NCBI RefSeq assembly: GCF_058153355.1
Contig: NZ_CM177019.1
Direction: 5' to 3' (one strand)
DNA: 64,000 nucleotides
Below are positions 63,793 through 64,000 of the stretch, in pieces; within the stretch, counting starts at the first letter, position 1, and each line of letters opens with the position of its first letter. A program made the translations under genes and the position numbers. The notes under the pieces were generated by a model. The model was not told the origin of the DNA and searched no databases. It saw nothing but the letters and a program-made list of their open reading frames with translations.

Positions 63793-63799
63793 ACATAAT

Positions 63800-63850
63800 A
63801 GCGGGAACATGTCAGCCTGATAAGACGCGTCAGGCCGGATAAGACGCGGT
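63800..63850. repeat. REP palindromic units hosting the second IS621 insertion
   Basis: gcctgataagacgcgtcaggccggataagacgcgg. Confidence 0.5.
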
Positions 63851-63852
63851 AG

Positions 63853-64000
63853 ATACTGTTATGGCCTGCAAGTTTTTTTCTACCCCGGTTTCCCAGATTG
63901 CAGGCATGCCAGACACAGCGCCGTCAGGCGCTGTTTTTTTCATCCCTTCCGCGATTTTTACGCCGCTACCGGATTATGCCGTGACGCATCGAACGGGACC
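63853..64000 (-). mobile_element. Right-end fragment of a second IS621 copy (continues beyond the window), same orientation as the first
   Basis: 63853-64000 is identical to 51201-51348, with the core AG (CT on the element strand) at 63851-63852. Confidence 0.88.

Follow-up and report, generated by a model that had tools for sequence, protein, structure and literature searches.

A second IS621 copy, very probably complete, begins at the ypfG/tktB REP region near an intact copy of the same rare sub-variant

The window analysed here, a 64,000-nucleotide stretch of contig NZ_CM177019.1 (RefSeq assembly GCF_058153355.1), very probably ends 148 bp into a second, complete copy of IS621 (copy 2) inserted at its cognate site, in the ypfG/tktB spacer (site 2). 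An intact copy of the element (copy 1) lies 12.6 kb away, in the ypfH/ypfN spacer (site 1). IS621 is an insertion sequence of the IS110 family; a bridge RNA from the left end of the element itself directs its DEDD/serine recombinase (PMC11208160, PMC11208158). Its REP-specific insertion was reported in 2003 by Choi et al., as cited in PMC11208160 (reference 16) and PMC1525189, while the bridge-RNA mechanism, the rules for targets and donors, and the tolerance at position 4 of the target were published in 2024 (PMC11208160, PMC11208158). The element and its mechanism are thus already known, and nothing in the window departs from the published IS621 rules.

Comparison of the window with itself showed that 63853-64000 is identical to 51201-51348 at 148/148 bases and in the same orientation, and that the identity extends five bases leftward, through the GGTAG at 63848-63852 and 51196-51200. 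This pentanucleotide is composed of the AG core (CT on the element strand) and GGT, which corresponds to ACC, the right half of the target. The preliminary description had reported the 148-bp identity, the common orientation and the same preceding AG, and all three were reproduced base by base. To the left of GGTAG the flanks are unlike (..AATAGCCT vs ..AAGACGC), indicating that the two copies occupy different genomic sites. A 40-mer from the right end (RE) was found at only two places in the window and the left end (LE) at only one; in the case of copy 2, "identical" refers to the 148 bp only. A chance repeat is ruled out by the 148/148 identity, and a segmental duplication by the flanks, which differ beyond 5 nt, and by the empty allele found for each of the two sites.

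The assignment of the repeat to IS621, also proposed from the letters alone, was confirmed by the recombinase of copy 1, by the alignment of LE and RE to the published ends, and by the PGAP naming of matching elements. The copy 1 protein is identical to the published IS621 recombinase at 322/326 positions, the differences being S45R, A86V, A90S and M251L. Exactly this protein is on record with the Pfam domains PF01548 (DEDD_Tnp_IS110) and PF02371 (Transposase_20), and the PGAP/RefSeq label of the matching E. coli elements is "IS110-like element IS621 family transposase".

The reference parts of IS621 were those of Supplementary Table 1 in Durrant et al. 2024 (PMC11208160). Copy 1 shares with this reference the 326-aa recombinase, the LE/RE architecture, the CT core (present at both of its ends), the guides, the donor junction ACAGTAT-CT-TG and the target ATCNGGCCTAC. 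It differs from it in length (1278 vs 1277 bp, with an LE of 192 nt vs 191 published), in five substitutions in the 105-nt RE, which are the same ones in copy 1 and copy 2, and in three changes that lengthen the LTG-RTG hairpin of the bridge RNA. Other differences concern the sites, since ypfH/ypfN and ypfG/tktB are unoccupied in 5,426 complete genomes and site 2 has a C at position 4. Over the 1278 bp of copy 1, identity is 97.7% with the common IS621 copies of E. coli and reaches 99.6% with the best match. The visible 148 bp of copy 2 match copy 1 at every base and the common E. coli RE at 95.9%, and they include the last 13 codons of the recombinase gene, identical to those of copy 1.

The LTG, RTG, LDG and RDG of the copy 1 bridge RNA are all identical to the published guides. 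The only differences from the published RNA are a G>A, a C>U and an additional U, all of them in the small LTG-RTG hairpin (52391-52406, minus strand). The predicted fold is preserved, and the stem of this hairpin is predicted to increase from 4 to 6 pairs. No bridge-RNA family from Rfam scored here. A candidate -35 hexamer (TTGCAG) in the RE would pair with a TATTAT in the LE, with a 17-nt spacer, only across the RE-CT-LE junction of a circular form. In the published element the bridge RNA has its natural sigma-70 promoter at the RE-LE junction, and truncation of the donor removes the -35 box (PMC11208160). The RE of copy 2 contains a terminator-like hairpin followed by a T7 run, which is also present in copy 1 (51263-51289, plus strand). 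This putative terminator is directed against transcripts that come in from the neighbouring gene (ypfG or ypfH). The coordinates of all these features are given in Table 1.

Table 1. Positions of the two IS621 copies, their parts and their flanking sequences in the 64,000-nucleotide window.
Feature	Position	Strand	Remarks
Copy 1 core CT, RE side	51199-51200	minus	
IS621 copy 1, complete	51201-52478	minus	1278 bp without the cores
Copy 1 RE	51201-51305	minus	
Copy 1 recombinase ORF	51306-52286	minus	326 aa
Copy 1 LE	52287-52478	minus	
Copy 1 bridge RNA gene	52287-52464	minus	178 nt; by alignment to the published 177-nt bridge RNA
RDG CAAG	within 52298-52306	minus	copy 1 bridge RNA
LDG ACAGTATC	within 52330-52343	minus	copy 1 bridge RNA
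RTG GTAG	within 52382-52390	minus	copy 1 bridge RNA
LTG ATCGGGCCT	52407-52415	minus	copy 1 bridge RNA
Copy 1 core CT, LE side	52479-52480	minus	
REP pair (BIME), source of the left target half of site 1	52480-52556	minus	Rfam naRNA4 (RF02564), model positions 1-77 matched at 89 bits; ends on the core C
Segment of ~11.4 kb between the same-orientation copies	52481-63850		ypfN, dapE, arsC-like, acrD, narQ, aegA, nudK, ypfG
Right flank of site 2	63796-63850	minus	AC at 63849-63850 (right target half), then degenerate 19-bp half-REP units downstream of ypfG
Core at the RE boundary of copy 2	63851-63852	minus	AG on the plus strand, CT on the element strand
Copy 2 RE, complete	63853-63957	minus	105 nt, ending ...GCCATAACAGTAT at 63853 (left donor half, LD); equals 51201-51305
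TTGCAG, candidate -35 hexamer	63866-63871	minus	
Terminator-like hairpin and T7 run in the copy 2 RE	63915-63941	plus	8 pairs, 6 G-C; consensus match only
Copy 2 stop codon	63958-63960	minus	
Copy 2 recombinase, last 40 nt and stop (...SRHNPVAA*)	63958-64000	minus	to the window end; equals 51306-51348

On the element strand, the flanks of copy 1 read ..CGCGTCTTATCAGGC-CT-[IS]-CT-ACCAGGCTA. Removal of the element and one CT leaves a sequence identical to the ypfH/ypfN spacer of strain R32_14_1F at 140/140 bases, indicating that the target of site 1 was ATCAGGCCTAC (ATCAGGC-CT-AC). This is a naturally observed IS621 target; the target encoded by the loop is ATCGGGCCTAC, and a mismatch at position 4 is tolerated (PMC11208160). 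Site 1 matches the loop-encoded sequence at 10/11 positions, with one rG:dT wobble at position 4.

At site 2 the element strand reads CT followed by ACCGCGTCTTATCCGGCCTGACGCGTCTTATCAGGCTGAC or, together with the end of the element, ...ACAGTAT-CT-ACCGCGTCTTATCCGGCC.., so that the RE side of copy 2 has the junction ...ACAGTAT-CT-AC, while its LE side lies outside the window. The ypfG-side sequence is present in 5,424 of the 5,426 complete E. coli genomes, none of which has the insertion. In BLAST alignments to empty sites, the best matches run through the AG core and stop right after it (query 1-1053 of 62800-64000). The flank of site 2 is equal to the empty site up to the core in three contigs that share one spacer sequence, L001 (strain R32_14_1F), L003 and L007. 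These contigs continue ..GGCCGGATAAG, and on the element strand their empty site is ..GACGCGTCTTATCCGGC-CT-ACCGCG... These empty sites indicate that the target of site 2 was TTATCCGGCCT followed by ACCGCG, that is, ATCCGGCCTAC (ATCCGGC-CT-AC). The window itself shows CT-AC only, and the left target half would be as in these relatives, which are ~0.7-0.9% divergent from it. This target also matches the loop target at 10/11 positions, the C at position 4 giving an rG:dG true mismatch and not a wobble. Targets of the ATCCGGCCTAC type are documented but rare, with 2 among the first 129 natural targets (seq53 and seq54; PMC11208160).

The flank of copy 2 had been described as REP sequence on the basis of ccggataagacgcgg. 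The stretch concerned (63835-63849) is indeed REP-derived, but it belongs to a 19-bp x3.3 array, of which it forms one degenerate half-REP unit. The hairpin giving the 7-nt left target half, as read from empty sites in relatives, sits across the element, past base 64000. In a relative with site 2 empty, the naRNA4 match (39 bits, E = 9e-6, under the gathering score) has the core C as its last base. As the same holds for the naRNA4 match at site 1, both insertions share one register, at the 3' end of a REP hairpin. Of the adjacent half-REP units at site 2, the occupied one reads ..CCT-AC and the next one ..CCT-GA. The use of the former and not the latter would fit a requirement for the right target guide, as a single case.

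The ypfG/tktB spacer of R32_14_1F (L001 4012-4128) consists of the 19-bp x3.3 half-REP array followed by a 14-bp x3.7 array (GCATCCGGCAATCA), and the window includes only the first part of that spacer, 63796-63850. The ypfG region (62800-63852) shows at least 99% identity to only 10 complete E. coli genome records and 90-95% identity to 4,547, so that the strain carries an uncommon allele of this region.

The preliminary description had also read the two junctions as two REP insertions with the same CT-AC arrangement, in favour of sequence-guided targeting. Both parts of this reading stand: the sites are different, both elements are on the minus strand and CT is followed by AC at each; the insertions are clean and in the same register when compared with the empty sites in relatives, and two of three ATCNGGCCTAC sites are occupied. 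Before the insertions the window held these three sites among ~125,000 strand positions. The probability that two random insertions would both fall on ATCNGGCCTAC sites is ~6e-10, a figure to be taken as a post hoc illustration. The sole remaining intact ATCNGGCCTAC site in the window is a ATCCGGCCTAC at a REP tail (26208-26218, minus strand), which is unoccupied, and a one-mismatch site, AACAGGCCTAC, is found inside acrD (55143-55153).

Because the harvest of IS621 right ends from GTDB representatives consisted of one draft contig, natural targets were surveyed in ten full copies from long contigs and in the published list. All ten copies are 1277 bp long with CT on both sides, and eight of them are inserted in ATCAGGCCTAC. 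Sequence-guided REP targeting by IS621 is supported by these data, and was already established experimentally (PMC11208160).

In the likely history of these insertions, a copy of the IS621 sub-variant would have been excised as a circle with an RE-CT-LE junction. One loop of the bridge RNA, the donor loop, would pair with the circle junction ACAGTAT-CT-TG, and the target loop (LTG ATCGGGCCT, RTG GTAG) with the REP tail ATCNGGC-CT-AC, so that recombination at the CT core would set the element between CT and AC. Two such events would have taken place in the lineage, one in the ypfH/ypfN REP (ATCAGGCCTAC) and the other in the ypfG/tktB REP (ATCCGGCCTAC).

The IS621 right end occurs in 1,679/5,426 complete E. 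coli genomes, where the median number of places is 8. The sub-variant found in the window is rare: an RE at least 99% identical occurs in only 6 genomes, and the only records of the exact recombinase protein are two collapsed repeat contigs of ~1.24 kb. The insertions at site 1 and site 2 were both absent from the 5,426 complete E. coli genomes, and the 148/148 identity between the copies covers all five RE substitutions that mark the sub-variant. The sites unoccupied elsewhere, the rare sub-variant and the 100% RE identity together suggest that the element transposed recently in this lineage.

In about 560 complete E. coli genomes, all that is present of IS621 is an outer piece of the left end, 64-78 nt long. 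Two examples were fetched (L027 1517-1578, from ST131 strain 2822, and L028 1501-1566, from Ecol_276), in which 66 or 78 nt were matched. In both, the remnant adjoins znuB and an IS1397 copy, and ends at ..GTCCGCATGCC, just before the LTG, followed by the REP tail TTATCCGACCTAC. This looks like one old locus.

A single recorded contig, Logan SRR31441161_184, encodes the AcrD protein of the window; it is 11,412 bp long and corresponds to window positions 52466-63877 with 0 mismatches. One of its ends lies 13 nt into the LE of copy 1 and the other 25 nt into the RE of copy 2. An assembly based on k-mers breaks in this way when both ends of a contig enter a repeat. The sequence agreement makes it very likely that SRR31441161 comes from the same strain. 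This contig bears on the idea that the junction downstream of ypfG is an assembly artefact, produced by the wrong joining of a repeat end. No public complete genome carries the junction, as this idea would have it, but the Logan contig contains the same ypfG-REP-RE junction with its 25 nt of RE, and the junction lies at exactly the right base of a legitimate target. An artefact was rejected on this independent short-read support and is hardly credible.

The completeness of copy 2 was approached through the frequency of partial elements. In the 5,426 complete E. coli genomes, the 148-bp RE probe (RE-148) matched 12,190 places, the corresponding LE probe (LE-148) 12,968 and the whole element 13,149, which leaves at most ~181 RE-only places (~1.5%) and indicates that copy 2 is very probably complete. 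The other possibility that comes from the position of the window edge is a solo right-end remnant, the rest of the element, and perhaps adjacent DNA, having been deleted past base 64000. The window does stop after 148 bp of element, and IS621 remnants do exist in E. coli, as in the ~560 genomes with only a 64-78-nt fragment; however, the known remnants are LE and not RE fragments (two examples fetched of five partial-LE rows listed). In addition to the low ceiling on RE-only places, 19/19 near-full-coverage rows in a spread sample of RE matches lie under an annotated transposase CDS, and the visible part of copy 2 reaches into the end of the coding sequence and shows 100% identity to the intact copy located at a distance of 12.6 kb. 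A solo remnant is thus very improbable.

Copy 2 could also be complete and have an LE flank other than the ypfG/tktB REP, if recombination between IS621 copies, either homologous or as a recombinase-mediated inversion or translocation, had joined another region to it. The median copy number in genomes with an IS621 right end is 8, inversion and excision between sites are among the reactions of the recombinase (PMC11208160), and the LE junction of copy 2 is outside the window. Against this, the gene order up to the copy 2 junction is the standard one (aegA-nudK-ypfG), copy 1 is a clean simple insertion, the 64-kb window has no sign of rearrangement, and the ten sampled copies, each between cognate REP halves, show simple insertion to be the default. 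Such an exchange is improbable.

If copy 2 is a simple and complete insertion, its remaining ~1,130 bp should extend to ~65130 and end as ...GGAGGGATAATACA-AG-GCCGGATAAGACGCGTCAGCG next to tktB. On the element strand, the tktB side would read as REP ..GCGTCTTATCCGGC / ..GCTGACGCGTCTTATCCGGC-CT, followed by the IS621 LE (TGTATTATCCCTCC...), and the two copies would be recent sisters. The RE junction of copy 2 was absent from the 5,426 complete E. coli genomes, the GTDB species representatives and the JGI metagenomes, and the predicted LE junction had no match in the JGI metagenomes. An exact look-up of YpfG returned empty sites only, as did TktB of the nearest relatives among the matches listed.

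Other REP-associated elements were compared with the two copies. ISPpu9 and ISPpu10 of Pseudomonas putida likewise belong to the IS110 family, insert in REP sequences and form circular intermediates, and their multiple copies per genome can drive larger rearrangements (PMC1525189, PMC12288879, bioRxiv 10.64898/2026.03.19.712850). They are different elements in a different host, whereas here only two direct copies around 11.4 kb are seen, with no sign of a rearrangement or alternative circle. IS1397, of the IS3 family, is also specific for REP/BIME sequences in E. coli (PMC1525189), but its transposase and mechanism are unrelated and it has no match to 63853-64000.

By analogy with the Pseudomonas elements, the two copies may jointly mobilise the ~11.4-kb segment between them as a natural composite "bridge transposon", although this is considered unlikely. 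In such a case, recombination of the copy 2 LE junction with the copy 1 RE junction would give a ~13.9-kb IS-segment-IS circle with a normal RE-CT-LE donor joint, which might then be directed to a further REP; amplification of the segment would be another outcome. Parallels would be the modular circles known for ISPpu9 and, for ISPpu10, the segmental amplifications ascribed to it.

For the strain itself, the right edge of the window is the start of a mobile element that interrupts the ypfG/tktB spacer, and ~1.13 kb more of IS621 is expected past base 64000 before tktB is reached. The significance beyond annotation is small, as this is one more copy of a textbook element at its usual REP target. 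The two insertions add two natural target sites that are unoccupied in 5,426 complete genomes, both of which fit the published targeting rules, and the direct pair around dapE and acrD could be a substrate for deletion, amplification or composite mobilisation.
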